From: Candidatus Omnitrophota bacterium
GTDB taxonomy: Bacteria; Omnitrophota; Omnitrophia; Omnitrophales; Aquincolibacteriaceae
Length of the DNA: 64,000 nucleotides
Assembly: GCA_016196545.1 (NCBI GenBank)
Contig: JACPXM010000020.1
Location: forward strand, 4,168 to 68,167
Reading direction: 5' to 3'
The notes beneath the pieces are model-generated. The model saw nothing but the letters and a program-made list of their open reading frames with translations. It ran no database searches and was not told the origin of the DNA. The position numbers and the translations under genes were made by a program. This document shows, in pieces, positions 8,612 through 43,143 of the stretch; the stretch's first letter is position 1; the number at the start of each line of letters is the position of its first letter.

Positions 8612-8613
8612 AA

Positions 8614-11674: not shown

Positions 11675-11698
11675 TCTTATAAATTCAAAAGCCCAGCG

Positions 11699-14583: not shown

Positions 14584-14679
14584 GGAATGAGGACTTAAAA
14601 CCCCATCGTTAAACCTCTTAAAATCATTTTAGGCGCGGGATGGTATTTTCCTCAAAGTACCGGAGGGATAGAAGTCTAT

Positions 14680-20286: not shown

Positions 20287-21724
20287 CACGTATCTTCGAT
20301 TGCCCACGACGGCATGGTTTCTTATCGCCTTAGGATTGTTGACTTGTCTTGGAACTGCCAATCCCGCTTTTACCATGGCCAGTTTGATGTCCTTGGTTTT
20401 TTTTATCACGCTCTTGTGGCGGAAAGGGGAACCTCCGGTACTTTTTTTTGCGATCGCGTTTCAATGGCTACAGGTTAGCATAAAAATCTTTCATGCCAAT
20501 TTTATGGGATTCACGCTCGCCGATATGTTCGGAGATACCGATATCGAAAAAGCGATTACGCTTAGTCTTAGTGGATTGGCGGTACTGGGGTTGGGCATGA
20601 GATTCGGTCTCATTAATTTTAAGGGCACTCGAGAACAAAAAATAAAGGATGAGATTAAGCATTTTTCGGTGAAAAAAATCTGGGTCGTTTATCTTTTCAC
20701 GTTTATAGCCTCCTTAGTCTTCAAAGGGCTCATATGGAAAATTCCGCCTTTGACCCAGATTCTCCTTGCGGCATTCAATTTGAAATGGGCGGTTTTTTAT
20801 TTGCTGGCTTATACCATCATCGCAAAACGGATAGGGGCTTACTTTCTGATTTTAGCGGTCCTTATGGAAGTCATCGTTGGTGTGACGGGTTTTTTTTCAG
20901 ATTTCAAACAAGTCTTTTTTGTCTTATTTGTCGTCATGTGGACCGTGGGCTATCGCATGACGCCCAAAAATACGATCCGAACTCTCGCCATCGCCGTTTT
21001 GGTGTTTTTTATGGGGGTGGTTTGGACTTCGGTTAAAACAGAGTATCGAAAATTTGTGAGCGACGAAACCGGCCAACAAGTTACGCTTGTTTCCTATAAT
21101 GAAAGACTGAGTAAGATCATTGACCTTTCCTTGAGTATTGATTCGGAGCGTTTAACCAAAGGCGTTGAAAAACTTGCGGAACGGATAGCCTATGTGGATA
21201 TGTTCGCAAACGTATTGAATTATGTTCCGGACGTTATGCCTCATGAAAACGGAGCGCTTTGGAAGAAATCGATTATGCACATTCTTGCGCCCCGTATATT
21301 TTTTCCCAACAAACCCGTTTTGGAATCCGATTCTGAATTGACCATGAAATACACGGGGTTACAAATGGCAAGCGGTCAACAGGGAACCTCGATCAGCATC
21401 GGCTATATGGCGGAAAGCTACATCGATTTCAAAATTCCGGGAATGTTTATTCCTATTTTTATCCTCGGGATTTTATGGGGAGGAATGTATCGATACTTCA
21501 TAAGGAGATCTCGAACCAAAATATTTGGTTATGCCATTGCCGTGGCCGTTTTAATTCAAGCGAATCAGTTTGAAATTCATAATACCAAATTAGTTGGGGG
21601 CATGTTAATGAGTTTTATCGTTATGGGACTTGTACAGAAGTTTGGAATCCCCGTGATTAGTCAATGGGTGTTGATCGGTAGAGAGAAAAATGTCGCTGGT
21701 ATTACTCAAGAAAAACTATGTTGA
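20273..21724 (+). CDS. polytopic membrane protein, Wzy-like repeat-unit polymerase candidate
   Basis: More than 10 predicted TM helices and a roughly 110-aa hydrophilic loop at residues 270-380. It sits between the GT genes and the exporter. Confidence 0.45.
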   Translation: MSAPNTYLRLPTTAWFLIALGLLTCLGTANPAFTMASLMSLVFFITLLWRKGEPPVLFFAIAFQWLQVSIKIFHANFMGFTLADMFGDTDIEKAITLSLSGLAVLGLGMRFGLINFKGTREQKIKDEIKHFSVKKIWVVYLFTFIASLVFKGLIWKIPPLTQILLAAFNLKWAVFYLLAYTIIAKRIGAYFLILAVLMEVIVGVTGFFSDFKQVFFVLFVVMWTVGYRMTPKNTIRTLAIAVLVFFMGVVWTSVKTEYRKFVSDETGQQVTLVSYNERLSKIIDLSLSIDSERLTKGVEKLAERIAYVDMFANVLNYVPDVMPHENGALWKKSIMHILAPRIFFPNKPVLESDSELTMKYTGLQMASGQQGTSISIGYMAESYIDFKIPGMFIPIFILGILWGGMYRYFIRRSRTKIFGYAIAVAVLIQANQFEIHNTKLVGGMLMSFIVMGLVQKFGIPVISQWVLIGREKNVAGITQEKLC

Positions 21725-24138: not shown

Positions 24139-24944
24139 CGATTATCACGCCCTTTTACAAAAGGGATTTGAGTCCGGAGGAAACAATTTCCCTGAGGCAT
24201 TTGAATCATTTTTTGGGCCCCTATGATAAATATCTAGTGATGCCGGAAGGTAAAAAAGGGGGCCTCAAGGGGTTTCAAAAAACTTTTGTTCCCCAAAAAT
24301 ATTTTAAGAGCCTCGATTCTTACAGTCATTTGCTTTTATCAAAGAAATTTTACCAGCGGTTTGCCCGCTATGATTACATTTTGATTTATCAGCTTGATTC
24401 TTTAGTGTTCTCAGATCAACTCATGGAGTGGTGTGTTCGAGGCTATGATTATATTGGGGCCCCCTGGTTAAAGGAATTCGGATTCCCCTGGACTCAAGGA
24501 AAGGATTTGGTGGGAAATGGAGGGTTTTCCCTGAGAAAGGTTGATAAATTTATTGAGATATTAGAAAATTACAACCATATCGAATTTCTTACCAAACGCT
24601 TGCTTTCCAGCGCCAGACGATTAACATTGAGATTACCGAAGCGCATCTACAAGGCCATTGTTCGGAGCGAGGCGAAGACCACGCTTTACGATCTGTATCA
24701 TAATCCTTATCGATTGTTGAATTGGCTGAATCGAGGATATTCCGGAGAAGACCTTTTTTGGTCGGTCGAGGCCTCTCAGTATGTAAGGCAATATATCAAA
24801 GCCCCCGTGGAGCAAGCCTTGGCCTTCTCCTTTGAAGCAAATCCCGCCTCTTGCTTCAAGAAAAATCATAACACGCTGCCTTTTGGGTGTCATGCGTGGC
24901 CGAAAAATAACAGAAATTTTTGGGAGGCCTATCTTTTGCAATGA
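24117..24944 (+). CDS. conserved hypothetical protein (GT-A-like?), paralog A
   Basis: About 60% identical to the ORF at 26748-27569. Shared blocks SLRHLNHFLGPY, YILIYQLDSLVFSDQL, YDYIGAPWLKEF, GNGGFSLRKV and LPFGCHAW. Confidence 0.5.
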   Translation: MSDQPKVAIITPFYKRDLSPEETISLRHLNHFLGPYDKYLVMPEGKKGGLKGFQKTFVPQKYFKSLDSYSHLLLSKKFYQRFARYDYILIYQLDSLVFSDQLMEWCVRGYDYIGAPWLKEFGFPWTQGKDLVGNGGFSLRKVDKFIEILENYNHIEFLTKRLLSSARRLTLRLPKRIYKAIVRSEAKTTLYDLYHNPYRLLNWLNRGYSGEDLFWSVEASQYVRQYIKAPVEQALAFSFEANPASCFKKNHNTLPFGCHAWPKNNRNFWEAYLLQ

Positions 24945-26764
24945 AGATTTCAGACGATATTTTACGTTTTAAATCTCTGATTCAAAAAACGGAATTAAAA
25001 CTATATTATTTCGTTTTGCCCTCGACCCTTGCGATCCTTTCGTCTCTTTTGGAAGGGGCAACCGTGATGCTTCTTCCCTCTCTTCTCCAAGCGATTTTGA
25101 CCTTAAACATGAATGCCCTCGATCATTCCTTTATTTTTCGATGGCTGGATCCCGTTTTTCCGCTTGATCAAATTTCGAATAGCTCAAAATTCTTGCTTAC
25201 CGTAAGTTTTGTTTTCATCGGCAGTATTGCCCGGCAGATCTTCCAGTATGGAGCTCTGGTGAGTTCCGCTTATCTGGTAAGAACTTTTGCAGACCGCCTG
25301 AGGCAGGCGATCTTCAGCCGATGCCTGAGTTTTAATAAGCATTTTTTTGATGCAACCAGCATCGGGTACATGCATGAAACGGTCAATTACCCAAAGCAGA
25401 TTGCTGCGAAATTGCTGGAAGCGCAGTCGGTCATGATTCAATTGCTTCTCACTGTTGTTTACGTAACCATCCTTTTTTATATTTCGTGGGAATTGACCCT
25501 GATTAGTTTATTTTCATTTTTCTGCACGTATTTTTCCCTGCGGTGGCTGATCTTTAAAATTAAGCATTCTTCCAGAGACTATGTGATATCCCAAAATGAA
25601 TTGGGGAAAAAAATTTATGAAATCTTTTCTTGCATCCCTTTGGTGAAGGCCTATTCCAGGGAAACCGAAGAAAAAAAGAATTTTTCTGAATTGAGCCGGC
25701 AGGTGAGCCTGTTTGAATTTAGCATTGATAAAAAATGGCTCTTGATACCGTCGATTCAGGAAATGATTCAGCTGCTTTCAATTTTAGTGGTTTTATCCGC
25801 AATGGTTTATTTGGTGATTCATGGCGAGGGTGCCGATAGAATCGCTCAATACCTTGTCTTTTTTTACATTATGAGAAGGACCTCTGCGTCCATCGCGATC
25901 ATTAATTCCGCGAGAGGTGCTTTTGCCACCATCAGCGGTCCCGTGGAGGCTATCTCTAAGCTTTTAGAAGGCACAAGCCCGTATGAGATTCAAGAGGGGG
26001 ATAAAGAATTTTCCGGTATTCAAAAGGAAATCCATTTTCGTCATCTTAATTTTTCCTATCCTGGAAATCCAAACGTTCTGCAAGATGTTAATTTAATTTT
26101 GAAGCGAGGAGAAACAACAGCCCTCGTAGGTCCTTCCGGAGCCGGCAAAAGCACCTTGGTTCATTTGCTCCTTCGTTATTATGATTGCCCCCAAGGCTCG
26201 ATTCTTCTTGACGGTGAGGACATCCAGTCTTTCACCAATAAATCGCTTAGAAAGAAAATGGCGCTGGTCAGCCAGGATATTTTCTTGTTTCACCTATCCC
26301 TTCGTGAAAATCTTTTGTATGGCTTAGAAAGTCCAGTCCCGGAAGGGACCATTCAAAAAGTGCTGCATCAATCAAGACTAGCTGAATTTGTGCGGGGCCT
26401 TCCCTCAGGACTTGAGACCGTCGTCGGGGATCGCGGTATAAAACTTTCGGGGGGTGAGAAGCAAAGGCTTTCGATTGCCCGCGCAATTTTAAAGGATGCT
26501 GAAATTCTCATTCTGGATGAGGCCACAAGCTCCCTTGACAGTGTGACGGAGCGGTTGATTCAGGAAGCGATGGACGAACTTGTCAAAGGAAAGACCGTTA
26601 TGGTGATTGCCCATCGCTTTTCGACGATTCAAAAAGCGGATAAAGTGGTTTATCTTGAAAATGGGCGGGTCCTGGAAGAGGGGAAGTGGGAAGGGCTTTT
26701 GAAGCAAAAGGGCAAGGTCTACGAGGCCTGGAAGAATCAAAAAATTAATGTCGAATCCCTCTAA
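24941..26764 (+). CDS. ABC exporter, fused permease plus ATPase (MsbA/PglK-type)
   Basis: Six-TM N-terminal domain, then Walker A GPSGAGKST, signature LSGGEKQRLSIARAIL and Walker B ILILDEATSSLD. Confidence 0.85.
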   Translation: MKISDDILRFKSLIQKTELKLYYFVLPSTLAILSSLLEGATVMLLPSLLQAILTLNMNALDHSFIFRWLDPVFPLDQISNSSKFLLTVSFVFIGSIARQIFQYGALVSSAYLVRTFADRLRQAIFSRCLSFNKHFFDATSIGYMHETVNYPKQIAAKLLEAQSVMIQLLLTVVYVTILFYISWELTLISLFSFFCTYFSLRWLIFKIKHSSRDYVISQNELGKKIYEIFSCIPLVKAYSRETEEKKNFSELSRQVSLFEFSIDKKWLLIPSIQEMIQLLSILVVLSAMVYLVIHGEGADRIAQYLVFFYIMRRTSASIAIINSARGAFATISGPVEAISKLLEGTSPYEIQEGDKEFSGIQKEIHFRHLNFSYPGNPNVLQDVNLILKRGETTALVGPSGAGKSTLVHLLLRYYDCPQGSILLDGEDIQSFTNKSLRKKMALVSQDIFLFHLSLRENLLYGLESPVPEGTIQKVLHQSRLAEFVRGLPSGLETVVGDRGIKLSGGEKQRLSIARAILKDAEILILDEATSSLDSVTERLIQEAMDELVKGKTVMVIAHRFSTIQKADKVVYLENGRVLEEGKWEGLLKQKGKVYEAWKNQKINVESL

Positions 26765-28490: not shown

Positions 28491-30311
28491 ATGCTAATTT
28501 TCAATTTAAATTTTACCGATATCCCCCTCGAAACCCGCCGAAGGCTTGAGCCTTTATTGGAACTAAACGAAAAAACAGTGATTCTAGATATGGCGGATTG
28601 CGAGTCCTTTTCGCTTAAAGGTCAAAGGGTCGAGAGAAGAATATGGAAGGAAGATTTTCGGGAAAGCATCTCAGAGGCTCGCCGTGGAATTTCGTTTCTG
28701 CTCAATCCTTGGTTGAATGATAAAACACCGTGGGACTATCGAGGTCTTCCGCTACGAAAGATCCTGGAGGGGGAATTGCGTTCTATCGTTTTCTACCGTT
28801 TCCTCATGTTCATATTTTTCACGAAGGCCTTGAAGGCCACGACGTCAAAGCGAGTCGTGATGATCCGAAATAAGCAAGGTTACAATCCGGAGCTGGACCT
28901 GTGGTTTGAAGCGCTCAAGGGATTGGCCCATAACCGCTCTCTGGAATTATTGGAAATCGAAATCCCATCTCAAGGGGTCCCGTTTCGGCGTTGGCTTCGC
29001 CGGGGCTTAAAAGTTTTCCGAAAAGGTCTGACTCAAAAACGCTCAAATCGAATCACGGAATTGGGAAATCAAGAAAAAATCCTTGCGATGGGTTTTGATT
29101 TTCCGACGGCTTTTGAATTAATAACCCCCGTCTTTATCGATTTAAAAAAAGATTATGCTGTCAAATTGTGTCTTTCCGAAGCTTCCGGAGAAAAAGCGGA
29201 TCTTTTGATCAAAACCGCCCAACATTGTGACATCCCTTTTGAAATCCCAAGCCTTGGAGATTGCATTCAGCTTGAGAGGGAACCGCTGCCCGAAATGTAT
29301 CCCCTTTTTGAAACGGGCGCGCGCGACGCCGAATTGTGGAGATTTTTAAAACCCACCTTGGAGGAATATTTCGCTCCACGGGCTTTGCAAAACAAGTTTC
29401 GCCTCATTGAGAGCGTCCGGTTATGGCTTGAGGAAGACAAGGTGAAGGCCGTAATTTTACCCGCCGAAAAAACCGCGGTTCAAAGGGCCGCTTGTTATTG
29501 GGCGGGCATGAAGGCAATCAAAACCGTTATTGTGCCGCATTATTACGACCAATTTTCAATCAAACAGCGCGGCGATTTGTGGCATTCGCCGCCTTTGGCC
29601 ACTCAATGGGCAGTTTTGGGGGAGAAAATCAAAGAAGAATTGATCGATGGCGGAATGGATCGCGGGCGTATTACGGTAACGGGACTTCCTAAGTTCGATA
29701 TCTGCGAGACGGCCCCCGTAAATCAAAGTATCCTTCTTGACCGATTGAAGATTCGGGGAAGGTTCTCTGGAATATTTGTTTGGGCCTTGCAAGGGTTTCG
29801 GGAAGAGGCCTTGCTATTGGAGCATTTGAAGGCGGCCATGAAATTTTTTCCGGATAAGCTTTTAATTGTCAAACCGCATCCGTTTCAGGATCAAAAAGTA
29901 GAAGTCAAAGGGATAAAGAATATCGTGATTCATTCCCTCATGAGCATGAGGGATTTAATTTCCGCCGCCGAAATGCTTCTAACGGGAACTTCTATTAGTG
30001 CCTTTGAAGCGATTCTTATGGGGAGGCCGGTTCTCATTCTGAATTTATTTAACACCCTCTATCCCTATCCCTTTCTTGAGGCTCAAGCCGCATTCGAGGT
30101 GACAAAACCGGCTGAAATCGTCCCGACCATTAAAAAGATCTTGGAGGATACGAATGCTCAAAGTCAATTAAGGGCGGGCCGCGAGCAGATTCGTAAAGCC
30201 TATGGTCCCTGCGCAGGGCGGGATGCGAGGCAAAGATTAAGGGATCTCATTTTATCTGAGGACACGACATGCCTGAAATCCACGAACAATATCAAAAATT
30301 TAACGAGTTAA
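28491..30311 (+). CDS. large HP-motif GT-B protein, capsule-synthesis KpsC-like (Kdo/CMP-sugar transferase family) candidate
   Basis: C-terminal KPHPFQD, and about 40 aa later TGTSISAFEAILMGRPVLIL (HP motif then a serine-rich block). Length 606 aa, close to the roughly 675 aa I recall for KpsC (length not verified). Confidence 0.35.
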   Translation: MLIFNLNFTDIPLETRRRLEPLLELNEKTVILDMADCESFSLKGQRVERRIWKEDFRESISEARRGISFLLNPWLNDKTPWDYRGLPLRKILEGELRSIVFYRFLMFIFFTKALKATTSKRVVMIRNKQGYNPELDLWFEALKGLAHNRSLELLEIEIPSQGVPFRRWLRRGLKVFRKGLTQKRSNRITELGNQEKILAMGFDFPTAFELITPVFIDLKKDYAVKLCLSEASGEKADLLIKTAQHCDIPFEIPSLGDCIQLEREPLPEMYPLFETGARDAELWRFLKPTLEEYFAPRALQNKFRLIESVRLWLEEDKVKAVILPAEKTAVQRAACYWAGMKAIKTVIVPHYYDQFSIKQRGDLWHSPPLATQWAVLGEKIKEELIDGGMDRGRITVTGLPKFDICETAPVNQSILLDRLKIRGRFSGIFVWALQGFREEALLLEHLKAAMKFFPDKLLIVKPHPFQDQKVEVKGIKNIVIHSLMSMRDLISAAEMLLTGTSISAFEAILMGRPVLILNLFNTLYPYPFLEAQAAFEVTKPAEIVPTIKKILEDTNAQSQLRAGREQIRKAYGPCAGRDARQRLRDLILSEDTTCLKSTNNIKNLTS

Positions 30312-31309
30312 AAGCAATTTTCATCGGAGGATTGAATCGCTCGGGAACCTCTTTAGTTCTCAGGCTTTTGGACGGGCATCCTAAATTGCTGGTTTATCCT
30401 ACGGAAAATTGCATGATTCGCGACTATTTTTCGGTGGATTCGAAGCATCCCATTCGAAAGGGAATGGACGAAGGAATGGCATCGCGGGATGCCCAAAAGG
30501 TTTTTGACCATATAAGGATTCAGCCGCGGGCATGGCAATTAACACGTTTAAGGATTAAGGCAAGCGCCGAGCTTCTTTGGCAGCGGCACCCTCATCCCGA
30601 AAGAATCTCTGATGTTTTTACTTCTTTTAACATTCAGGATTTCGAAAAATGTTTCATTGTAACTTTAAATCTGATTAGCTCGGAATGGGACATCGGTCAT
30701 TTGGTGAGGGCTTGGAATTTCAGCTATTTTTGGACCCTTGGCATCCAGGACATGACAAAATTTTCCGGATGGGTCAGCAAATGCCCCAATTCGGAAAATC
30801 ACTATGGTGCTTACCTTTCGTTATTTCCCAAAGGCCGTACGATTCATATCCTTCGGGATCCCCGTGCAATTTTTATCTCCGCGAAAGAAAAAAAGAAGTT
30901 TTCCGGCCAAGGCCAAAGGGAACTTTTGAGCCTGCAGCCTTTCAAAGAGCTTGTTTTGTCCATTCAAACCTATAAAAACCGGTGGGCGAAAGTGGCGGAG
31001 GCCTCCCAGCTTTATCCAAGTGATTTTAAGATTTTAAAATATGAGGATTTGATTCAAAACCCTCAGCGCGAGATGGAAAAAATAAGCCATTTTTTGGGGA
31101 TCGAATACGACGCTATTTTGTTGACTCCGACTTTTATGGGGGATCCGTGGTATGCGAATTCCAGTTTTGAGCTTCAAAAAGATAAAACGGGAATTATTTT
31201 TCAAGATTCTTTAAAGCGATGGCAGAAGGAGATCTCCATTTGGGAAAGACTGCTGCTCAATTGCCACTTTTCAAAAATTCTTAAGGAGTGGAATTACCCC
31301 CGCTACTAA
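30269..31309 (+). CDS. sulfotransferase, paralog 1
   Basis: 5'-PSB loop GGLNRSGTSL and 3'-PB-like ILRDPRAIFIS. Confidence 0.7.
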   Translation: MPEIHEQYQKFNELKAIFIGGLNRSGTSLVLRLLDGHPKLLVYPTENCMIRDYFSVDSKHPIRKGMDEGMASRDAQKVFDHIRIQPRAWQLTRLRIKASAELLWQRHPHPERISDVFTSFNIQDFEKCFIVTLNLISSEWDIGHLVRAWNFSYFWTLGIQDMTKFSGWVSKCPNSENHYGAYLSLFPKGRTIHILRDPRAIFISAKEKKKFSGQGQRELLSLQPFKELVLSIQTYKNRWAKVAEASQLYPSDFKILKYEDLIQNPQREMEKISHFLGIEYDAILLTPTFMGDPWYANSSFELQKDKTGIIFQDSLKRWQKEISIWERLLLNCHFSKILKEWNYPRY

Positions 31310-31324
31310 AAGTGAGGAGCTTTG

Positions 31325-32338
31325 ATGTCTGAAATCCAAAAACAATTTCAAGCCTTCAGTAAGTTAACGGCGATTTTTATCGGGGGACTGGCACGATCGG
31401 GAACCTCCCTCATGCTACGCTTGTTGGATGGGCATCCCAAATTGCTCGTCCACCCGATTGAAAATTGCATCCTACGAGATTTTTTCGAAGCGCCCCCCAC
31501 GCATCCGGTCCGCAAGGGGATTGAAGAAGGGATGGGATCGCGGGATGCACAGAAGATTTTTGATCATTTGAAGACCAATCCCCGGGCATGGAGGCTTACC
31601 CGCGTAAGGACAGAAGGAGAGGGAGAAATCGTGGAGGAACACTCTTCCTTTAATGTGGAAGGGTTTGAAAAATGCTTTTTAGAAACCTTAAGCGGCGTCA
31701 ATTCCGCATGGGACATTCATCATTTACTTCAGGTTTGGCTTTTTAGTTATTTTTGGACGCTCAAAAAGCGGGACATGTCCCTGTATTCCGGTTGGGTCAT
31801 CAAATGTCCGAGTGCGGCCAAGTATTATAAAACCTACGCGGACTATTTTCCCGAGAGAAGGATTATCCATTTGATGCGCGATCCCCGCGCCGTCTATCTG
31901 TCGGCAAGGGAAAAAAAGACTTCCGCGCAAAATCAGGAAGTGGTCACTGTCCTTTTAAGAAAAAGGCCCCTTTTGGGAGTCCCGCTTTTGATGCGATTTT
32001 ACAAGGATGAAATAGATCGTGCCCAAGCCTTTGCCAAAGCTCAGCGTGTCAAATTTACCCTCATAAAGTATGAAGATTTGGTGAACTTCCCTCAAGATCA
32101 AATGGAAAAAATTAGCCATTTTTTAAACATCCCCTATGATCCTATTTTGGCAATGCCTACTTTCGGGGGACGGCCGTGGGTTGCCAATTCCAGTTTTGAG
32201 GTTCCGAGAGATCAAAGCGGAAAAATTTTTGAGGATTCTTCCAAACGCTGGGAAAAAGGGATCTCCGTTTGGGAAAGGCTTTTATTCGGGGTTTATTTTT
32301 CAAAAACGATTAAGGAGTGGAATTACCCCCGCTACTAA
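31325..32338 (+). CDS. sulfotransferase, paralog 2
   Basis: GGLARSGTSL and LMRDPRAVYLS. It shares a 30-nt identical 3' end, encoding KEWNYPRY, with paralog 1. Confidence 0.7.
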   Translation: MSEIQKQFQAFSKLTAIFIGGLARSGTSLMLRLLDGHPKLLVHPIENCILRDFFEAPPTHPVRKGIEEGMGSRDAQKIFDHLKTNPRAWRLTRVRTEGEGEIVEEHSSFNVEGFEKCFLETLSGVNSAWDIHHLLQVWLFSYFWTLKKRDMSLYSGWVIKCPSAAKYYKTYADYFPERRIIHLMRDPRAVYLSAREKKTSAQNQEVVTVLLRKRPLLGVPLLMRFYKDEIDRAQAFAKAQRVKFTLIKYEDLVNFPQDQMEKISHFLNIPYDPILAMPTFGGRPWVANSSFEVPRDQSGKIFEDSSKRWEKGISVWERLLFGVYFSKTIKEWNYPRY

Positions 32339-32347
32339 AGGTTGCTC

Positions 32348-33322
32348 ATGCCGGATATCTCCTTCATTATCCCTGCCTTGAATGAAAAGGAAACCCTGCG
32401 TTATACCCTTGCGAATCTCTTTAAGACGGTTACGCAACAAAGTTTTGAAGTCATTGTCGTGGATGACGGCTCTGAGGAAGACCTTTCAGGAGAGCTGATT
32501 GATCCCGGTAAGGTGATTTATATCAAAAATCACCAAAGATTGGGAGTCTCAAAATCCCGAAATCGCGGTGCCCGCCAGGCCCGGGGCCAAGTCCTCGTAT
32601 TTTTAGATGCCCATGTATGTTTTGTGGGGGATTGGCTCAGTAAAATTTTAAAAAAAAGAAAGCAGTTCAAGGATGCCGTCATGGGCATCATGACATATCC
32701 CTTAACAGATATTCAGGTGTTTTGGGAAATTGCCCTCTCGGGCGTCCCTCCTAAGAAAAAAATAAAGTCGCAGCCTTGTTACGGGTTTACCATGACTTCA
32801 TTGCCCATGCCGGAGCTTCATGCCATTTCTTCGAAACGATTCCATTCACCCTTTGAGGTCCCCATCGTAACGGCCCGCGCTATGATCGTTGAAAAAAATT
32901 TATTCTTTGAACTCGGGGGATTTCTTAATGAACTTACCGGTTATGGGGCCCTCGAAGATACGGAATTTTGTATGCGGGCTTGGATTTTTGGGAAAAAAGT
33001 GCTCGCCTTTGCCGATACGGAGTGCTATCACTGCCTTTACGGGCCGAGGTCTACCAAAAGCACACGCGTCGAATATGAAAAAATACCTTTTTATACCGAA
33101 AAATATGAAGGCGGTGTGGAAAACGCGTTTCGAATCTTTTACCTGCACTCTTCCGAAAATCAATTTAAGCAACTGATCGACTTCCATAAAAATCTCTCGG
33201 GGTTTAGCCCGAACCTTTCGGCGATTCTGACGGACGAATTAAAGGCCCAAAAAGAATGGATTTCCAAAAAAAGAATTCATGATGAGGACTGGCTTTTTCA
33301 GAGAATGAAAAAGGTAGGTTGA
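32348..33322 (+). CDS. glycosyltransferase family 2
   Basis: ISFIIPALNEKETL...FEVIVVDDGS. Confidence 0.8.
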   Translation: MPDISFIIPALNEKETLRYTLANLFKTVTQQSFEVIVVDDGSEEDLSGELIDPGKVIYIKNHQRLGVSKSRNRGARQARGQVLVFLDAHVCFVGDWLSKILKKRKQFKDAVMGIMTYPLTDIQVFWEIALSGVPPKKKIKSQPCYGFTMTSLPMPELHAISSKRFHSPFEVPIVTARAMIVEKNLFFELGGFLNELTGYGALEDTEFCMRAWIFGKKVLAFADTECYHCLYGPRSTKSTRVEYEKIPFYTEKYEGGVENAFRIFYLHSSENQFKQLIDFHKNLSGFSPNLSAILTDELKAQKEWISKKRIHDEDWLFQRMKKVG

Positions 33323-33324
33323 GA

Positions 33325-33774
33325 ATGTTTCCTCCGATCGTGATTGTGACCGATTCCCTAAAAAGGATGGAGGAATTTAAAAATAACGAGAGGTATTTAA
33401 TTGTCGCCACCCGGCCCCACCTAATTTTGGAATTCAAAGAAATGGGGTATTTGAATACCCGCGATTTGGGTCAATATCAAACGGGGAGGTTTCACGACTA
33501 TAACGATTTATACCGTCACTACGAGGCAGAGGTCCTCAAAGGGTCCGGATTGGCAGAAAAGGAGGAGGCCCTCTCGTGGGAGAATTTCCGTCAAACCTTG
33601 ATGTCTGCCCTTGCACCCATTTACTTCCTGCGAGATACCCTGAGCTCGCTTGCTCAAAAGGAAGGGGCCCACGAATTTATATTGAAAGTTCAAGACCCGG
33701 AATCAAAACTTAATTTTCAAATGGCCGTAAATGAACTCCATGAAAAAAATCTTATTCGCATTTTATCATCGTGA
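33325..33774 (+). CDS. hypothetical protein
   Basis: ORF only. Overlaps the next gene by about 40 nt. Confidence 0.3.
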   Translation: MFPPIVIVTDSLKRMEEFKNNERYLIVATRPHLILEFKEMGYLNTRDLGQYQTGRFHDYNDLYRHYEAEVLKGSGLAEKEEALSWENFRQTLMSALAPIYFLRDTLSSLAQKEGAHEFILKVQDPESKLNFQMAVNELHEKNLIRILSS

Positions 33775-34840
33775 TGATTTTCCCACGATAGAACCGCTTC
33801 CGCTTCCTTTAGCGAGGCGGGGGGCTGAGGCCTTTCTCTGTAATAGTTATCTGCCCCGATTTAGGTTTAAAACCTCAAATTGGAAAACGATTTTTCCCAA
33901 GCCTTCAAGGATAAAAGATTCAAACAAAGAATATTTATCCCAAGTTTTAAGCCCTCTGGCGAGAGGCATCTTAAATAAAAGGTACGGCAGTAATACGGTT
34001 ATTGAACATTTGCATAGTTATCAAACCGATATTCCCCCTTTTCTTGAAAGGACTCTTCAAACCCTGAAACCGGATTTGGTGGTACTCTCTTTGAGCGAAG
34101 TTGAAAGTATGCTGGCCCGGGACGCCTGCAAACGATTTTCCGTGAAATATTGCTATTTGTTGCCGCAGTATTTTGAATTCAAGACCCTCGGCTATTTTAA
34201 AATCGAGCCCGTCCCTTATCTCGTGGCCGGAGAGGAGGGAAAAGAGCGCCTGATTCGTAAAGGGGCCCGCCCGGAACAGATCTTCGTTACCGGAAACGCT
34301 TCCTACGACAAAGTCTTTCGTATCCTCAAAAAAAAGATCCCCAAAGATACTTCCCATAAAACTATTCTATTTGCCCAGCAAAATAGAAGTGAGGACGCCA
34401 TTCTAATGGATCTTTTAAAGCGCTATTTATCGAGACGAAAAACGGTGCGATGGGTTAACCGTCCTCATCCCACAGAGTTAAGCGGCAAGAGGCGGTCTTT
34501 TGCACAGTCTCAAAGCCTTCATTCCGACCTTTTAAAATCAGATGTCTTGGTGACGGCATCTTCCCTAACGCTGCTTGACGCAATCGTCTTGAATGTTCCG
34601 GCCCTTTCATTTAAATGCGACTATTTTCCTGAAGAAATTTCCTTTGCGGACCATGGCGATGTACTTCCGGCGCGTAACTACGGAGAATTGGAGAAATTTT
34701 TAGATCTTATTCTTTTTGATTCAGAATTTCGAAGGGTTTGGCGCAAATCCCGTGAAGATGCCTCTAAAAAATATCTGTCTCAGGGTGACGACCCTGCTGC
34801 GGAAAAAATTGCCGAGGTCTTGCTTGACCTTGCTTCCTAA
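33731..34840 (+). CDS. HP-motif GT-B protein, capsule-synthesis KpsS-like candidate
   Basis: VNRPHPTE, and 32 aa later VTASSLTLLDAIVLNVPAL. Length 369 aa, close to the roughly 390 aa I recall for KpsS (length not verified). Confidence 0.35.
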   Translation: MNSMKKILFAFYHRDDFPTIEPLPLPLARRGAEAFLCNSYLPRFRFKTSNWKTIFPKPSRIKDSNKEYLSQVLSPLARGILNKRYGSNTVIEHLHSYQTDIPPFLERTLQTLKPDLVVLSLSEVESMLARDACKRFSVKYCYLLPQYFEFKTLGYFKIEPVPYLVAGEEGKERLIRKGARPEQIFVTGNASYDKVFRILKKKIPKDTSHKTILFAQQNRSEDAILMDLLKRYLSRRKTVRWVNRPHPTELSGKRRSFAQSQSLHSDLLKSDVLVTASSLTLLDAIVLNVPALSFKCDYFPEEISFADHGDVLPARNYGELEKFLDLILFDSEFRRVWRKSREDASKKYLSQGDDPAAEKIAEVLLDLAS

Positions 34841-34841
34841 C

Positions 34842-35849
34842 TTGAATCAAAAAATTACAGTGCGTTCCTACGAAGCGGGGGATGAGGCCGGCGTTCGGGA
34901 TTTGTTTCATCGTGTCTTTGGAAAAGAAAAAAGGAAGGAAATTTGGGAATGGGAATTTTTCAGCGCCGAAAACGGCCCGTCTCTTTTGACAGTTGCGGCT
35001 GATGACGACGGTCATATTGTTGGATTTTGCGGAGGGGTGTCTCTACGGTTTCAGTATCAGGAAAGGGTATTAAAGGTTTATCAAATCGTGGACCTTATGG
35101 TCCATCCCGATTGTCGGTGCCGAGGACTTTTGCGTGACTTGATGCAATACCATTTTAAAAGTGCCCCGGGAGCTGATTACGGATTTATGTACGGATTTCC
35201 TTCCCCGGAGGCCGCGCGTTTGTTGAAATTTCATCAATTGAGCGAAGCGGCCTCGGAGATCACCGAGTGGAAAATGAAGCTTGGCTGGAGAAAGGGGCTC
35301 AAACTTTTATGGAAGCAGAACGCCTCAAAGGGAAATACTTTCGTGTTCACGCCTCTTAAGAAGTTTGATTCAGAAATCGATAGGTTCTGGGAATCTGTAA
35401 AAGGGGATTATCCCTGTGGGATTATTCGAGATAGTCAGTATCTTAATTGGCGCTATGCAGACGCTCCAGGACATCCTTATGATCTTTTTGTTGCCAGAGA
35501 CTCTCAAACCCGCTCGATTCAGGGATTAGCCGTGACCGAGGCGGTAGCGAATTCCGGCCGCTGGGAGATTATTTTATGGGAACTTTTTGTTCGCCCGAAT
35601 GACGACGCGTGCTTGCGATTTATGCTTGATCGTTTGGCGCTTCGCTGCTGGCTTCGTGGAAAGAAAGCCCTTCGCTTTTTTCAGGCGCCTCAAAAAAAAC
35701 CCCCGATTTTTATGTCCCTTGGATTTAAGAAAAAAGCGTTTGAGGCATGCCGATTTCTGCCCTTGTTTTATGGTCCCTCGGTCGATCGTTCCTTTATCAA
35801 GGACCGTCATTATTATTCACCAGGTGATATGGATCTTTTCTTCTTTTAA
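34842..35849 (+). CDS. GNAT-fold acyltransferase
   Basis: acyl-CoA-binding-like VGFCGG...RCRGLLRDLMQY. TTG start at 34842, straight after the upstream stop. Confidence 0.45.
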   Translation: MNQKITVRSYEAGDEAGVRDLFHRVFGKEKRKEIWEWEFFSAENGPSLLTVAADDDGHIVGFCGGVSLRFQYQERVLKVYQIVDLMVHPDCRCRGLLRDLMQYHFKSAPGADYGFMYGFPSPEAARLLKFHQLSEAASEITEWKMKLGWRKGLKLLWKQNASKGNTFVFTPLKKFDSEIDRFWESVKGDYPCGIIRDSQYLNWRYADAPGHPYDLFVARDSQTRSIQGLAVTEAVANSGRWEIILWELFVRPNDDACLRFMLDRLALRCWLRGKKALRFFQAPQKKPPIFMSLGFKKKAFEACRFLPLFYGPSVDRSFIKDRHYYSPGDMDLFFF

Positions 35850-35850
35850 A

Positions 35851-36822
35851 ATGGTCAATCCCAAATCGATTTGTGAAAAGCTCGACCGAAGGCTTTCAGC
35901 CGTCTTAGGATCACGCATTGTCATTTTAAATTATCATCATGTCCTCGCCTCCCGTCAGGATTTATTCAATATCTGTGTCGCGCCCAAAAATTTTGAGGCC
36001 CATTTGGAATTCCTCAAGCGCCGGTATCGGGTCTTGGGTCTTTCGGAACTATTGGGTCTTTTGAAAATAGGCAAAATTCCCCACAGGGCCGTAGTCCTGA
36101 CTTTCGACGACGGATATTCAGATAACTATTTGAACGCGGTGCCTCTTTTAGAAAAATATCGAATGCCCGCAACTTTTTTTGTGACCACACAACATCTAGA
36201 TACCCTTGAGGAATTTTGGTGGGATGGGATTCAAAGACTGGCTTTGTCCCTCAAAAAATTTCCGGAAAAGGTTCATCTTGAAATTTCCGGTGAGGATTGT
36301 GAATTGGCATTGGGGTCATCTCCCGAACCGACATTGAGATTATTATCCCAAAAAATGTATTCGCTGGAGGAGGAAAGCCGGAGGCGTCTTCTCCAGGAAC
36401 TATTTCGAAAATGTGGCGTTCGGGACGAGCCCCGAGCTGAGTACCGGTGTTTTTCGTCAGAAGAGCTCTTTTTGATTTCTAAAAATCCCCTTTTTGAAAT
36501 GGGTGCCCATACGGTTTCACACCGGTCCCTTAAATCGCTCCCCCTTGAAACCCAGAGGATGGAAATTTTGGCGAGCAAGAAATGCTTAGAAGAAATCATT
36601 CAAAAGACAATCCGGCATTTTGCGTATCCCTTTGGAACGCCGGAGCATTACACGCCTGAAACACAACGGTTAGTTCAAGCATGTGGATTTAAAAGCGCCT
36701 GCACGGTGGGATCTAGCGCGGTGAATCCTGACAGCCCTTTATTTGGTCTCTGCCGACTGGCGGTTGGAGATGGCCCAGCGACTTCATTTTCACAAAAGCT
36801 TGCGGAGTGTTTTCATTCTTAA
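35851..36822 (+). CDS. polysaccharide deacetylase (CE4/NodB domain)
   Basis: LTFDDGYSDNY and the later GAHTVSH. The ATG at 35851 follows the upstream stop codon by one nucleotide. Confidence 0.75.
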   Translation: MVNPKSICEKLDRRLSAVLGSRIVILNYHHVLASRQDLFNICVAPKNFEAHLEFLKRRYRVLGLSELLGLLKIGKIPHRAVVLTFDDGYSDNYLNAVPLLEKYRMPATFFVTTQHLDTLEEFWWDGIQRLALSLKKFPEKVHLEISGEDCELALGSSPEPTLRLLSQKMYSLEEESRRRLLQELFRKCGVRDEPRAEYRCFSSEELFLISKNPLFEMGAHTVSHRSLKSLPLETQRMEILASKKCLEEIIQKTIRHFAYPFGTPEHYTPETQRLVQACGFKSACTVGSSAVNPDSPLFGLCRLAVGDGPATSFSQKLAECFHS

Positions 36823-40603: not shown

Positions 40604-41815
40604 TTGAAACTTCTTCTGATTAATCAAGTTTTTTGGCCGGATGTAGCGGCGACCGCGCAGCATCTTACGGACCTTGCCTGTGAACTCATAAATCAGGGCC
40701 ATGAAGTGACAGTCCTTTGCGCCCGCCGTGGATATACGGAGCCGCATTCTATATTTGCCAAAAAAGAAATTTACCAAGGGATTCACATTGTTCGAGTGTG
40801 GCCCTTCTCTTTGGGCAGAAAATATAAAATTCTTAGAGTTTTAGATTCCCTTATTTTAAATTTTGCGTTTGCGCTGCGACTTGCGAGGCTGGGACATTTT
40901 GAGCGTATCCTTGTTCTTACGTCGCCTCCGCTCGTGGGTGGGGTGGCCGGTTTTTTTGCCAAGCTTTGGAGAAAACCTCTTATTTTGTGGATGATGGATG
41001 TGAATCCCGATGAGGCCATTGAGGCGGGTTGGATTCGACGAAACTCCTTGGAAGCTCACATGCTGGAGTCCGCGCTTCGATGGGTATTAAATCAAAGCCA
41101 AAAAATCATCGTGCTGGACCGCTTTATGCGGGACCGCATCCTTCTTAAAGGCGCCGATCCGAACAAAGTAAAAGTCATCGCGCCCTGGTCTCATGATGAA
41201 GCGATTCAACTTATTCCTCATCGTGATAATCCGTTTCGAAAAAAAAATAATCTTGATGGAAAATTCGTCGTTATGTATTCAGGTAATCTCAGCATTTGCC
41301 ATCCCCTGAACACGCTTTTGGAGGCTGCGTTTTTGCTCAAAGAGGAGCCTACGATTTCCTTTGTTTTCATCGGAGGCGGCCAGCGCACCCAAGATATCCT
41401 TCAGGCCCGCAAAGAGCGCTCTTTATCGAATGTTTTTTATTTTCCTTATCAACCCCGGACAGAGATCAAATATTCTCTTTCGGCAGCCGATCTTCATACC
41501 GTGGTGATGGGGGAACCTTATGTGGGGATTGTTCACCCCTGCAAAATTTACGGAATTTTAAGGCTTGGCCGGCCTTTCATTTACATCGGCCCTCAACAAA
41601 GCGCCCCCGGAGAATTGATGGAGGCCCTAAAGACGGGCGCTCGCGTCGATCACGGAGAAGCGGAAAGGCTTGCGGGGCTCATCCTTAAAATGAAAAATTT
41701 GAGCGAAGCTGAAAAAATGGAAATCCAAAAAATAAATCAGGCACTCGCGCAGCAGTTTTCCGGTCATGAAATTTGCGCCGGGCTCGCGCGCGAAATAACA
41801 GGGAAATTAAATTGA
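40604..41815 (+). CDS. glycosyltransferase, GT4-like (WcaI-like)
   Basis: LLLINQVFWPDVAATAQHLTDLACEL is a GT4 N-terminus. TTG start. Confidence 0.7.
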   Translation: MKLLLINQVFWPDVAATAQHLTDLACELINQGHEVTVLCARRGYTEPHSIFAKKEIYQGIHIVRVWPFSLGRKYKILRVLDSLILNFAFALRLARLGHFERILVLTSPPLVGGVAGFFAKLWRKPLILWMMDVNPDEAIEAGWIRRNSLEAHMLESALRWVLNQSQKIIVLDRFMRDRILLKGADPNKVKVIAPWSHDEAIQLIPHRDNPFRKKNNLDGKFVVMYSGNLSICHPLNTLLEAAFLLKEEPTISFVFIGGGQRTQDILQARKERSLSNVFYFPYQPRTEIKYSLSAADLHTVVMGEPYVGIVHPCKIYGILRLGRPFIYIGPQQSAPGELMEALKTGARVDHGEAERLAGLILKMKNLSEAEKMEIQKINQALAQQFSGHEICAGLAREITGKLN

Positions 41816-41817
41816 GG

Positions 41818-43143
41818 ATGATCTCTCAGCGAAGTTTCTTTCTTCTGAGCTGCGATTTATTGTCGCTTGCGATTGCCTATGTCTTTGGTTTCGGCATGCG
41901 CACGGGATTTAACGAATACGCGCTTTCACGGCTGAGCTTTCTTTATTTTTCTTTTATCGTCTTTCCCATTCTCTTTTACACGTTTGACCTTTACTATCCC
42001 TACAAGCATTTTGGCGGCATGCAAACGTTCATTGACGTCGTGCTGGCCGTTGTGACCGGGATTATCCTTTCTGCCGCCGCGGCCTATGCCGACCGTTCCC
42101 TTATTCTGCCCCGGCTTATCTTTTTCTATACCATGATTTCTCTCATTCCCACGATTTACGCGGCCCGACTTTTTTATGATTTTCTTTTTGGCTCAAGACT
42201 CCTCGATAAAAAAGTCATTGTCATTGGAACCGGTCCGCTGGCGCTGGAAATCGTGCGCACCATTCGTGCGACCCCTCATTCGGGAATGGATATTGTCGGC
42301 CTTGTCAGCACAAAAAAAGTGCCCTCGGAAAAAAAGCACGGAATTCCGATCACGGGTTCCCTCAAGGACCTGATCACTTTGATTGACTGGTACAACATTC
42401 AGCTTGTGGTGATGGCGCTGGAGGCCGGAGAAGACCATTCCGAGACTCATGTGATGGCAGACCTGCTGATGCACCGGGTCCAAGTCGTGAGCTCTATCCA
42501 TTTATTTGAGCGGCTGACGCAGGAAATTCCCTATAAGCTATTGGGGCCTCAATACCTTCTCGGATTAATGTCCCAAGTCAAAATTAGGCCTTATCTGAAA
42601 ATGAAGCGGGTTCTTGATCTCATCACGGCCTCTTTATTATTGATCTTTCTTTTGCCTGTTTTTATGTTCGCGTTGTTTTTTCTTTCGATCACGGCGCGCG
42701 GAAAAATATTTTTTTATCAGGACCGCATTGGAAAAGACAGCATCCCCTTCCGTCTCTATAAATTGAGGACGATGGCAGAGTCCCAAAAGGGGCATCTTTA
42801 CATCACGCGTTTCGGAGGATTCCTCAGGAAATTCCGGATCGACGAAATTCCTCAGCTATGGAATGTGATCAAAGGGGATATGAGCCTGATCGGCCCGCGG
42901 CCGGAAATCCCTTATTTTGTGACCCGCTGCCGCAAGCGCATTCCTTTTTATGACGCTGTCTTTGCCGTCAAACCCGGCCTTACGGGATGGGCTCAGGTGA
43001 AATTCCGTTACACGGTATCCGCCAAGGATTATGAGCAGAAATTTCGATACAACTTGTACTATTTAAAAAATATTTCCTTTGCGCTGGATCTTTTGATTGT
43101 TTTGAAGACGATTCGCGTGGTGTCGCTGGGGAGAGGAAAATAA
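41818..43143 (+). CDS. polyprenyl-phosphate sugar-phosphate transferase (WbaP/EpsL-type initiating transferase)
   Basis: KRVLDLITASLLLIFLLPVF...YKLRTM...DEIPQLWNVIKGDMSLIGPRPE is the bacterial sugar transferase domain. Confidence 0.85.
   Translation: MISQRSFFLLSCDLLSLAIAYVFGFGMRTGFNEYALSRLSFLYFSFIVFPILFYTFDLYYPYKHFGGMQTFIDVVLAVVTGIILSAAAAYADRSLILPRLIFFYTMISLIPTIYAARLFYDFLFGSRLLDKKVIVIGTGPLALEIVRTIRATPHSGMDIVGLVSTKKVPSEKKHGIPITGSLKDLITLIDWYNIQLVVMALEAGEDHSETHVMADLLMHRVQVVSSIHLFERLTQEIPYKLLGPQYLLGLMSQVKIRPYLKMKRVLDLITASLLLIFLLPVFMFALFFLSITARGKIFFYQDRIGKDSIPFRLYKLRTMAESQKGHLYITRFGGFLRKFRIDEIPQLWNVIKGDMSLIGPRPEIPYFVTRCRKRIPFYDAVFAVKPGLTGWAQVKFRYTVSAKDYEQKFRYNLYYLKNISFALDLLIVLKTIRVVSLGRGK

Follow-up and report, generated by a model that had tools for sequence, protein, structure and literature searches.

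Two paralogous HP-motif GT-B proteins in an Omnitrophota polysaccharide locus: candidate ulosonic acid transferases with a remote relationship to KpsC and KpsS

[quoted passage not shown] In the retaining beta-Kdo transferases of GT99, GT107 and GT140, a QXXXD motif is absolutely conserved and its Asp is the nucleophile, while a Glu in the N-domain is the base (PMC10148158, PMC12887879); terminal Kdo of the WbbB type is known from a Wzm/Wzt-type pathway (PMC12887879). Bacterial sialyltransferases have two paired motifs, D/E-D/E-G and HP (Freiberger et al. 2007, PMC2169525). The BFO_1060-type proteins are genetically supported pseudaminic/legionaminic acid (Pse/Leg) transferases of Tannerella forsythia (Tanf_01245 / TFUB4_00887), the deletion of which removes the terminal Pse/Leg derivative from the surface-layer (S-layer) O-glycan (PMC5420450). 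Here we describe two HP-motif proteins of 606 and 369 amino acids (aa), HYZ85_01345 and HYZ85_01370, encoded in a 64-kb stretch of DNA from Candidatus Omnitrophota (contig JACPXM010000020.1; hereafter the window), where the interval 28491-34840 comprises six open reading frames (ORFs), all in the same direction. In NCBI both are annotated as hypothetical proteins; the metagenome-assembled genome, assigned to Candidatus Omnitrophica, has them on a contig of 202.8 kb. The original prediction, made from the letters of the window, raised the possibility that they are KpsC/KpsS-like. Reading from sequence and by analogy, we propose that each is a soluble GT-B transferase using a cytidine-nucleotide-activated donor, most likely a cytidine monophosphate (CMP)-ulosonic acid (Kdo or a nonulosonic acid, NulO), a proposal which in our judgement stands about an even chance of being right.

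The two proteins are paralogues. In a BLASTP alignment (E = 4e-8), residues 327-588 of the 606-aa protein matched residues 125-365 of the 369-aa protein; identity was 22% over 262 aa, and both the HP and the T-x-S blocks were in register. The HP motifs and serine blocks quoted in the original prediction were all present in the two ORFs, and the H, P and Ser were at least 90% conserved: G398, H463, P464, S501 and A507 reached this level in alignments of 84-90 homologues, and in a 24-sequence alignment H463, P464, S501 and A507 were invariant and Q434 and T498 nearly so. The Ser block begins 35 residues beyond the His in the longer protein, against 29 in the shorter. Taken alone, an HP dipeptide has little meaning: when either sequence was shuffled with its composition preserved, one turned up in 32-35% of cases, whereas HP with [ST]x[ST]S 25-45 residues further on was found in 0.3-1%. 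Conservation is a stronger argument than these shuffle statistics that the HP/Ser-block arrangement is real.

The family to which the pair belongs became visible only by exhaustive HMMER search. Word-indexed searches returned the 606-aa query itself and nothing else, three matches with the 24-sequence profile, and two homologues of about 40% identity with the 369-aa query. The exhaustive search found 1,228 relatives at E <= 1e-3, mostly of 600-670 aa, so that the family amounts to at least 1,228 clusters at 50% identity, from bacteria and archaea. Most of its members have the same layout as the 606-aa protein, N-terminal extension included.

AlphaFold models built on the family alignments were confident for both proteins, with a predicted local distance difference test score (pLDDT) of 88.5 and a predicted template modelling score (pTM) of 0.90 for the 606-aa protein, and 86.7 and 0.86 for the 369-aa protein. 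Both have a two-Rossmann GT-B core, which bears out the GT-B assignment made in the original prediction. The 606-aa model consists of an alpha/beta N-terminal extension (~1-195), which is non-catalytic and absent from the 369-aa paralogue, a GT-B N-domain (~196-405) and a C-domain (~420-606). Within the C-domain, strand 427-432 runs up to Q434; a helix and strand 456-461 come next and lead directly into H463-P464; and strand 495-498 is followed by G-T-S501 and helix 503-509, which bears E505 and A507. HP thereby comes after the second C-domain strand, and T-x-S after the fourth and before the helix. Judging by this strand order, HP and the Ser block probably lie on the edge with which the C-terminal Rossmann fold binds the nucleotide.

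Both proteins were compared with solved structures. Among the best 50 Foldseek matches of the 606-aa model, ranks 1-42 were all uridine diphosphate (UDP)-GlcNAc 2-epimerases and TagF appeared at ranks 47-49; 2-epimerases likewise headed the list of the 369-aa model (43 of the 50 best). These epimerase matches had E = 1e-12 to 1e-14 and TM ~0.6 over ~400-445 columns including gaps (~430 columns for the 606-aa model against 2-epimerase-type GT-B structures), and GT4 and GT1 enzymes came after them. Neither KpsC nor WbbB was among the best 50 matches of either model. A sequence search of the PDB with either single protein gave nothing meaningful, and the family profile found, in order, 2-epimerases (4neq, 1.1e-15), a GT28 glucosyltransferase, TarL (1e-7), Cps3D (8e-7), KpsC (1.3e-5, spanning ~85 residues) and WbbB (0.68).

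Within the model scans made, the best matches were to NF046086, entitled 'BFO_1060 family glycosyltransferase', and to TIGR04396, entitled 'surface carbohydrate biosynthesis protein'; both were matched by 84/84 family members (best E 3e-35 and 9e-33). For the window proteins the matches were confined to the C-domain: NF046086 matched the 606-aa protein only (7e-11, 41.9 bits against a 200-bit cutoff), and TIGR04396 matched the 606-aa protein at 1e-13 (51.1 bits) and the 369-aa protein at 1.6e-8 (34.2 bits) against a 125-bit cutoff.

Mainstream members of the family carry a QHG motif in the N-domain. We fetched 19 genomic loci of such members, and counted genes in the 15 best (GTDB genomes, L011-L025). 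The mainstream family is widespread among bacteria and, with methanogens, Asgard and DPANN lineages, among archaea; the loci fetched were archaeal (Methanosarcinales, Methanogenium, Methanoregula, Asgard, Woesearchaeota, Altiarchaeales and Undinarchaeota) and bacterial (Omnitrophota, Sumerlaeota, Dehalococcoidia, Clostridiales and Bacteroides). Among the 76 genes lying no more than three positions from the family gene in these 15 loci, the commonest Pfam families were NeuB (9) and CTP_transf_3 (7). Homologues of NeuB were present in 9/15 loci and CMP-synthetase homologues in 8/15, and in a metagenomic locus beyond the 15 a family gene (P0015) overlaps a CTP_transf_3 gene. These neighbours favour a CMP-activated donor for the family, and there is good circumstantial evidence that its mainstream members transfer CMP-activated NulOs. 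Canonical Epimerase_2 enzymes co-occur in five mainstream loci, with DegT aminotransferases alongside, which makes the family protein an addition to the NulO pathway and not a stand-in for NeuC/LegG. Replacement of NeuC/LegG, suggested by the 2-epimerase folds nearest to the family, was set aside as the main reading on account of these five loci, the missing epimerase catalytic acids described below and the genetics of the BFO_1060-type transferases (PMC5420450). Other frequent neighbours of the mainstream family are B12-binding radical-SAM enzymes and methyltransferases.

The clade that contains the window proteins departs from this pattern in its N-domain, where QHG is replaced by PxYx[DE]Q. 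P349, Y351 and Q354 were invariant in a 7-sequence alignment of the 606-aa clade, as were P145, Y147, E149, F150, K151 and T152 in a 3-sequence alignment of the 369-aa clade. Its genes lie in a cassette which we found with nearly identical gene order in three Omnitrophota assemblies (window 28491-36822; L002 8294-17664; L006 1-10022) and which comprises a 606-like gene, one or more sulfotransferases, a 138-151-aa ORF, a 369-like gene, an Acetyltransf_9 GNAT, a CE4 deacetylase and a GT2 enzyme. In contig SRR13608701_921 (L002/L004) the order is sulfotransferase, 2-oxoglutarate (2OG)-oxygenase, 624-aa homologue, sulfotransferase, 144-aa ORF, 411-aa homologue, GNAT, CE4 deacetylase and GT2, and synteny with the window extends from RsmB, by way of SpoU and a phosphoribosyltransferase, to the NusG paralogue. 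In GCA_964427885.1 (L006) a C-terminal fragment of the 606-like protein is followed by a sulfotransferase, an SGNH protein, two unknowns, a sulfotransferase, the 138-aa ORF, a 387-aa homologue, GNAT, CE4 and GT2. A search with the 369-aa clade alignment found no relative in the GTDB species genomes, and the cassette is for this reason rare or missing among representative genomes.

Part of the cassette recurs elsewhere in the family. Homologues of the GNAT are immediate neighbours of family genes in L002, L006, L031 and L018, and the same GNAT type follows P0014, a member of an intermediate clade. In L018, which is from Dehalococcoidia, the family gene has a CE4 gene and this GNAT type immediately upstream and NeuB and CMP-synthetase genes downstream, so that this locus bridges the cassette and the NulO loci. 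GNATs of the Acetyltransf_9 type, of ~340-380 aa, thus adjoin family GT-B genes in distant lineages (window 34716-35849; L018 7272-10726; L031 2064-3077), which suggests that GT-B/GNAT(/CE4) is a functional module.

The small ORF of the cassette is of interest with respect to the N-terminal extension. The 151-aa ORF and its two orthologues share 33-36% identity, and their three-sequence profile aligned co-linearly with family positions 2-122 (hhalign probability 78%, E = 1.7e-5); as a single sequence against the family, the 151-aa ORF gave a probability of 7%, which is not significant. The ORF probably represents the N-terminal extension of the family in free-standing form, and the short paralogue together with this ORF probably reproduces the layout of the long protein as two proteins; both suggestions are moderately supported by the alignment. 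A small ORF lies directly upstream of, and overlaps, the short GT-B form in all three cassettes (window 33319-33774; L002 12934-13368; L006 4629-5045), and the relation between ORF and extension looks like a gene split or fusion. An ORF of 186 aa precedes the 418-aa relative P0009 in the same arrangement (L032 9453-10013), the likeness being one of position.

According to the mechanism that we favour, these two paralogues of a large uncharacterised GT-B family would bind their donor through a C-domain set made up of the Gln of T-Q, HP, T-x-S and E/D-A. The donor would be a CMP-ulosonic acid, either Kdo from the housekeeping pool or a NulO made elsewhere in the genome, and by analogy with KpsC, WbbB and sialyltransferases we infer that the His and Ser may hold and protonate the phosphate leaving group. 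Each enzyme would add one residue to a polyprenyl-phosphate-linked glycan begun by the phosphoglycosyl transferase of the locus, before export, and the neighbouring sulfotransferases, GNAT and deacetylase would modify the same region of the glycan. The short paralogue would be supplied with its N-terminal extension as a separate protein by the 151-aa ORF, and the pair would work inside the conserved Omnitrophota cassette, decorating a heavily modified surface polysaccharide.

Several observations weigh against a CMP-ulosonic acid donor. Neither protein passed any of the curated Pfam or NCBIfam family cutoffs, and the best solved-structure matches are enzymes that bind UDP and not CMP. The change from QHG to PxYx[DE]Q means that chemistry, donor or acceptor may differ from those of the NulO-linked mainstream. 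No NeuB, CMP-sugar synthetase or Kdo gene was found in the 64-kb window, L002 or L006. HP is placed in the interdomain cleft by topology and by its alignment with KpsC/KpsS and an epimerase, not by measured distances. Finally, gene neighbourhood combined with an HP motif has misled before: SpsB of Bacillus subtilis, a TagB-like HP protein whose gene adjoins those for CMP-Leg, is dispensable for the transfer of Leg (PMC7439481).

Three other explanations were weighed, and the one closest to the original prediction makes the pair retaining beta-Kdo transferases of the KpsC/KpsS kind, which would build a poly-Kdo lipid linker for an ABC-transporter-dependent capsule. The prediction holds only at the superfamily level, where HP aligns and the homology of the core, though remote, is real. 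KpsC, KpsS and a TagF-like K2 polymerase from the kps cluster of Escherichia coli CFT073 served as references, with scores expressed at a PDB-sized search space, and the broad family profile gave 52.7 bits with KpsS (2.6e-13), 35.7 bits with the K2 polymerase and 33.7 bits with KpsC. In profile alignments the HP of both proteins coincided with that of KpsS and with those in the two modules of KpsC, the 606-aa Ser block TGTSISAFEAIL with 'VTINSTAGISAL' of KpsS, and Q434 with the Gln of the KpsC QXXXD motif ('VVDQTFND'). Weak Capsule_synth matches were seen in 74/84 family members (best 1.2e-9), a bacterium that makes lipopolysaccharide needs no dedicated CMP-Kdo genes, which fits their absence from the locus, and in L002 a Wzm/Wzt(+Wzt_C) transporter lies next to the cassette. 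Yet the similarity to KpsS and KpsC is limited to 70-100 residues, from the first C-domain strand through HP to the Ser block. The 606-aa clade profile reached only 1.3e-3 with KpsC and 2.8e-3 with KpsS, the 369-aa clade profile matched neither, and the search of Pfam Capsule_synth (PF05159) proposed in the original prediction gave no match of either protein at E <= 1. The Asp of the beta-Kdo QXXXD motif is not conserved in either protein (QGFRE; QNxxxD): the residue at +4 from Q434 is Glu in the 606-aa protein and Trp, Ser or Gly in some members of the clade, and the 369-aa clade has an invariant Asp at +5 from the Gln, not +4. The family QHG aligns with EEG of KpsS and with VEAG of the epimerase, and at this EDG/EEG-equivalent site the 606-aa protein has P-H-Y and the 369-aa protein P-Q-Y, so the N-domain Glu base of KpsC/KpsS is not at the aligned site of either; that EDG of KpsC is the same motif is our own reading, the profile alignment to KpsC not covering it. 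Architecture differs as well. The sizes were said to mirror those of KpsC and KpsS, but the CFT073 proteins have 675 and 412 aa with other domain layouts, KpsC having two HP-bearing modules (H194 and H522, with further HP dipeptides at 270 and 625) against one HP and one GT-B module in the 606-aa protein. The remodelled GT-B fold of KpsC and WbbB, with its reduced N-domain and helical subdomain, was not seen in our models, which are canonical GT-B structures nearest to 2-epimerases. No KpsM/T/E/D, KpsF/U or CMP-sugar synthetase was detected by Pfam and NCBIfam scans of the window ORFs examined, and a polyprenyl-phosphate sugar transferase is present instead. Motifs, fold, architecture and locus context, taken together, rule out KpsC/KpsS counterparts, and a poly-Kdo linker function is in our view highly improbable; what survives of the idea is the remote homology of the nucleotide-binding core.

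The two remaining alternatives concern the donor. On one of them the proteins would be ordinary nucleoside diphosphate (NDP)-sugar glycosyltransferases, using a UDP-, guanosine diphosphate (GDP)- or deoxythymidine diphosphate (dTDP)-sugar, or, with lower probability, enzymes of an epimerase or hydrolase kind that act on a UDP-sugar, with HP as a general phosphate-binding His. The best structural matches by profile and by fold are indeed UDP-GlcNAc 2-epimerases, a GT28 glucosyltransferase comes second in the PDB, dedicated donor-synthesis genes would not be needed in the locus, and the best Pfam match of the 369-aa protein was Epimerase_2 (PF02350; 4.7e-5, 22.8 bits over 52 residues). This match is below the gathering score (30.6 bits), however, and the 606-aa protein did not match Epimerase_2. 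In the profile alignment to 4neq the family HP falls on 'IHPR' and the T-x-S-T...EA block on 'TDSGGVQEEA' of the epimerase, but the catalytic acids are not kept: where the epimerase has the Glu of HxEAG, the family has Gln and the window clade Pro, and 'mPEEinR', the segment with the next catalytic acid, is deleted. Canonical Epimerase_2 proteins moreover occur together with family genes, and CMP-NulO chemistry is indicated both by the closest curated models and by what surrounds the family genes; we consider an NDP-sugar donor rather doubtful. Because the same positions align with UDP-binding 2-epimerases, CMP-dependent GT-B enzymes are not alone in having HP plus a Ser block; the combination is a general feature of a GT-B branch that, on sequence comparison, includes epimerases, TagF-like, Capsule_synth and sialyltransferase-like proteins, and by itself can identify neither KpsC/KpsS nor a CMP-sugar donor. 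The GT52 profile, which had been suggested as a check, did not match the window proteins, nor did the polyST (GT38) Pfam model; the GT38 and GT52 models gave weak matches in 4/84 and 1/84 family members. The other alternative is a TagF/TagB-like phosphotransferase, which would transfer a polyol- or sugar-phosphate from a cytidine diphosphate (CDP)-activated donor and build a teichoic-acid-like element. The sole Pfam match of the 606-aa protein was of this TagF type (Glyphos_transf, PF04464; E = 0.0026, 17.2 bits, C-domain only), a kind of match that the original prediction itself had named as counting against it, Glyphos_transf matched in 75/84 family members (best E = 4.5e-19), and TarL, Cps3D, the CFT073 K2 polymerase and, at low Foldseek ranks, TagF were all recovered. 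The family QHG resembles, as we take it, the catalytic-His motif of TagF. In the window clade this His is not conserved, the Glyphos_transf match lies below the 22.1-bit gathering score, and the 369-aa protein has none. No CDP-glycerol or CDP-ribitol supply gene was found in the scanned window ORFs, L002 or L006, the mainstream neighbours are NeuB and CMP-synthetase and not polyol-phosphate genes, and we regard a phosphotransferase as quite unlikely. The K2 polymerase, a TagF-like protein of 1,266 aa, is encoded in K2 capsule region 2 of CFT073 (L007 22336-26136). The family profile aligned at 28.8 bits with its residues 659-788, and the family is consequently about as distant from TagF-like as from KpsS-like enzymes.

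Returning to the ulosonic acid transferase that we favour, a more specific form of it can be put forward. The window clade could be a previously unrecognised type of ulosonic acid (Kdo/NulO) transferase, derived from the NulO-linked family through the change from QHG to PxYx[D/E]Q and consisting of a fixed long/short pair with a detached N-terminal module, which, with the sulfotransferases, GNAT and CE4, builds a sulfated acidic glycan specific to Omnitrophota. Q-x3-E and Q-x4-D could then be variants of the QXXXD nucleophile motif. Stated in full, this is speculative and rather unlikely. A very large GT-B family, tied genomically to NeuB and CMP-synthetase genes, is loosely covered by curated models, and its mainstream is a candidate NulO transferase family without an adequate one. 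The main practical value is a corrected annotation, for which the family-level NeuB link is useful: KpsC and KpsS names should be avoided for both genes, as should a group-2-type capsule label for the locus.

The polysaccharide locus around the pair extends over ~38 kb, from an UpxY-family antiterminator (5250-5807) to a polyprenyl glycosylphosphotransferase. The former, a NusG paralogue scoring above the UpxY-family cutoff, heads the locus, occupies the same place in L002 (5462-6016) and is probably an operon-specific antiterminator. Besides the genes listed in Table 1, the locus holds many GT4 and GT2 enzymes, methyltransferases, two CE4 enzymes, the two sulfotransferases, the GNAT, an SGNH protein and a NodU-like carbamoyltransferase. 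The original prediction, on condition that the pair is KpsC/KpsS-like, had the product built on a (Kdo)n-lipid anchor, and took the ABC exporter as fitting such a capsule and a Wzy-like polymerase as not fitting it. The exporter proved to be of the HepA/MsbA/PglK type and not a KpsMT-type ABC-2 transporter, and because it occurs together with a polyprenyl-phosphate transferase and a Wzy-like protein, and KpsM/T/E/D/F/U are lacking, a (Kdo)n-lipid anchor is unlikely. The 493-aa protein and the 402-aa protein with a GT87-like match that comes after it (20243-22926 together) are likely to be the 'Wzy-like' membrane components that were meant.

Exporters differ between the syntenic loci, the HepA/MsbA/PglK-type gene of the window (24920-26764) standing against a Wzm/Wzt pair with a Wzt_C carbohydrate-binding domain in L002 (6140-8210), and the window has ~20 kb of additional GT4 and methyltransferase genes compared with L002. 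DUF5672 paralogues (24117-24944 and 26748-27569, E ~1e-52 each) lie on both sides of the exporter gene, and in a 783-aa protein (17935-20286) two GT4 modules stand in tandem, Glycos_transf_1 being matched in two stretches. The decoration enzymes resemble a Nod-factor toolkit, with NoeE-like sulfotransferases (a weak match; 30269-32338), two CE4 enzymes (35587-36822 and 11699-12718), a NodU-like carbamoyltransferase (38822-40597) and six ORFs with methyltransferase domains, two of them overlapping calls (7994-16640), and the glycan is probably heavily substituted. Downstream of the locus, 48633-53301 encodes an ABC ATPase, an 841-aa ABC-2 permease/DUF7088/ABC_transp_aux fusion and a DUF4340 protein, a set that presumably resembles those of gliding-motility-associated ABC transporters. 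Longest-ORF calls overlap by 43-260 nt at 30269/30311, 33731/33774, 34716/34840 and 35587/35849, and several true starts are probably downstream of the first candidate, the motifs being unaffected. As its call overlaps the end of the 369-aa gene, the GNAT probably starts further downstream; the NCBI start of the 369-aa protein is three codons later than the ORF call.

Table 1. Positions in the window of the two HP-motif genes, their motifs and selected genes of the locus
Feature	Position	Strand	Basis
606-aa HP-motif GT-B protein HYZ85_01345	28491..30311	+	ORF list, AlphaFold, Foldseek, family layout
N-domain motif PHYYDQ, aa 349-354 of 606-aa protein	29535..29552	+	clade-specific replacement of family QHG
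QGFRE, aa 434-438 of 606-aa protein, end of first C-domain strand	29790..29804	+	Q434 nearly invariant
KPHPFQD, HP motif (H463, P464), aa 461-467 of 606-aa protein	29871..29891	+	conservation and profile alignments
TGTSISAFEAIL, Thr/Ser block, then helix residues E505-A507, aa 498-509 of 606-aa protein	29982..30017	+	T498, S501, A507 conserved
369-aa HP-motif GT-B protein HYZ85_01370	33731..34840	+	ORF list, BLASTP to 606-aa paralogue, AlphaFold
N-domain motif PQYFEF, aa 145-150 of 369-aa protein	34163..34180	+	3-sequence clade alignment
QNRSED, aa 217-222 of 369-aa protein	34379..34396	+	Q217, N218, D222 invariant
NRPHPTE, HP motif (H246, P247), aa 243-249 of 369-aa protein	34457..34477	+	conservation
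TASSLTLLDAIV, Thr/Ser block (T275, S278, A284), aa 275-286 of 369-aa protein	34553..34588	+	conservation
Sulfotransferase (Sulfotransfer_3), cassette member	30269..31309	+	Pfam E = 4.8e-25; homologues adjoin 606-like gene in L002, L006
Second sulfotransferase, paralogue of the first	31322..32338	+	Pfam E = 4.8e-22; phmmer E = 3e-126 to the first
GT2 glycosyltransferase between the two HP-motif genes	32342..33322	+	Pfam Glycos_transf_2 E = 8.8e-27
151-aa ORF upstream of 369-like gene	33319..33774	+	144-aa (L002) and 138-aa (L006) homologues in same place
GNAT acetyltransferase (Acetyltransf_9), cassette member	34716..35849	+	Pfam E = 2.4e-12
CE4 polysaccharide deacetylase, cassette member	35587..36822	+	Pfam E = 2.9e-24; homologues in same cassette place in L002, L006 and beside family gene in L018
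493-aa protein, weakly Wzy-like, membrane	20243..21724	+	no Pfam match; TIGR04370 repeat-unit polymerase E = 1.6e-6, below cutoff
Fused ABC exporter, HepA/MsbA/PglK type	24920..26764	+	Pfam ABC_membrane + ABC_tran; NCBIfam HepA 477.8 bits, below cutoff
Polyprenyl glycosylphosphotransferase, initiating enzyme	41773..43143	+	Bac_transf E = 7.9e-55; TIGR03025 313 bits against 295.55 cutoff

Compared with the systems described so far, the fold, the motif and the general role of these proteins are already known, and the link to NeuB and CMP-synthetase genes was foreshadowed by the work on Tannerella. New here are the divergent clade, in which the N-domain motif has changed, the fixed pairing within it, where the N-terminal module is probably split, and the sulfotransferase-rich Omnitrophota cassette. 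With KpsC, KpsS and WbbB the pair shares GT-B ancestry and an aligned HP and upstream Gln followed by a T/S-x-S-T block; the window locus differs in lacking Kps export and Kdo genes and in having a polyprenyl-phosphate primer instead. Bacterial sialyltransferases likewise carry HP in a C-terminal nucleotide-binding domain, whereas at the site aligned with their conserved D/E-D/E-G the family has QHG and the window clade P-x-Y. TagF, TarL and Cps3D are similar in GT-B fold, HP-type His, T-x-S-S-like block and C-domain profile; they are set apart by sub-threshold scores for the window proteins, a lack of nearby CDP-polyol genes and the NulO-type neighbourhood of the family. The UDP-GlcNAc 2-epimerases (WecB, MnaA and NeuC) provide the closest solved folds, with an equivalent His, Ser and helix acid, but their N-domain catalytic acids are not found in the family, the long form of which has an additional N-terminal domain. 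The BFO_1060 family has the same GT-B fold and HP motif, and the mainstream of the family described here likewise lies beside NulO genes; relative to it, the long protein of the window has an N-terminal extension of ~195 aa, another N-domain motif, and a neighbourhood of sulfotransferase, GNAT and CE4 genes without those for NulO synthesis.

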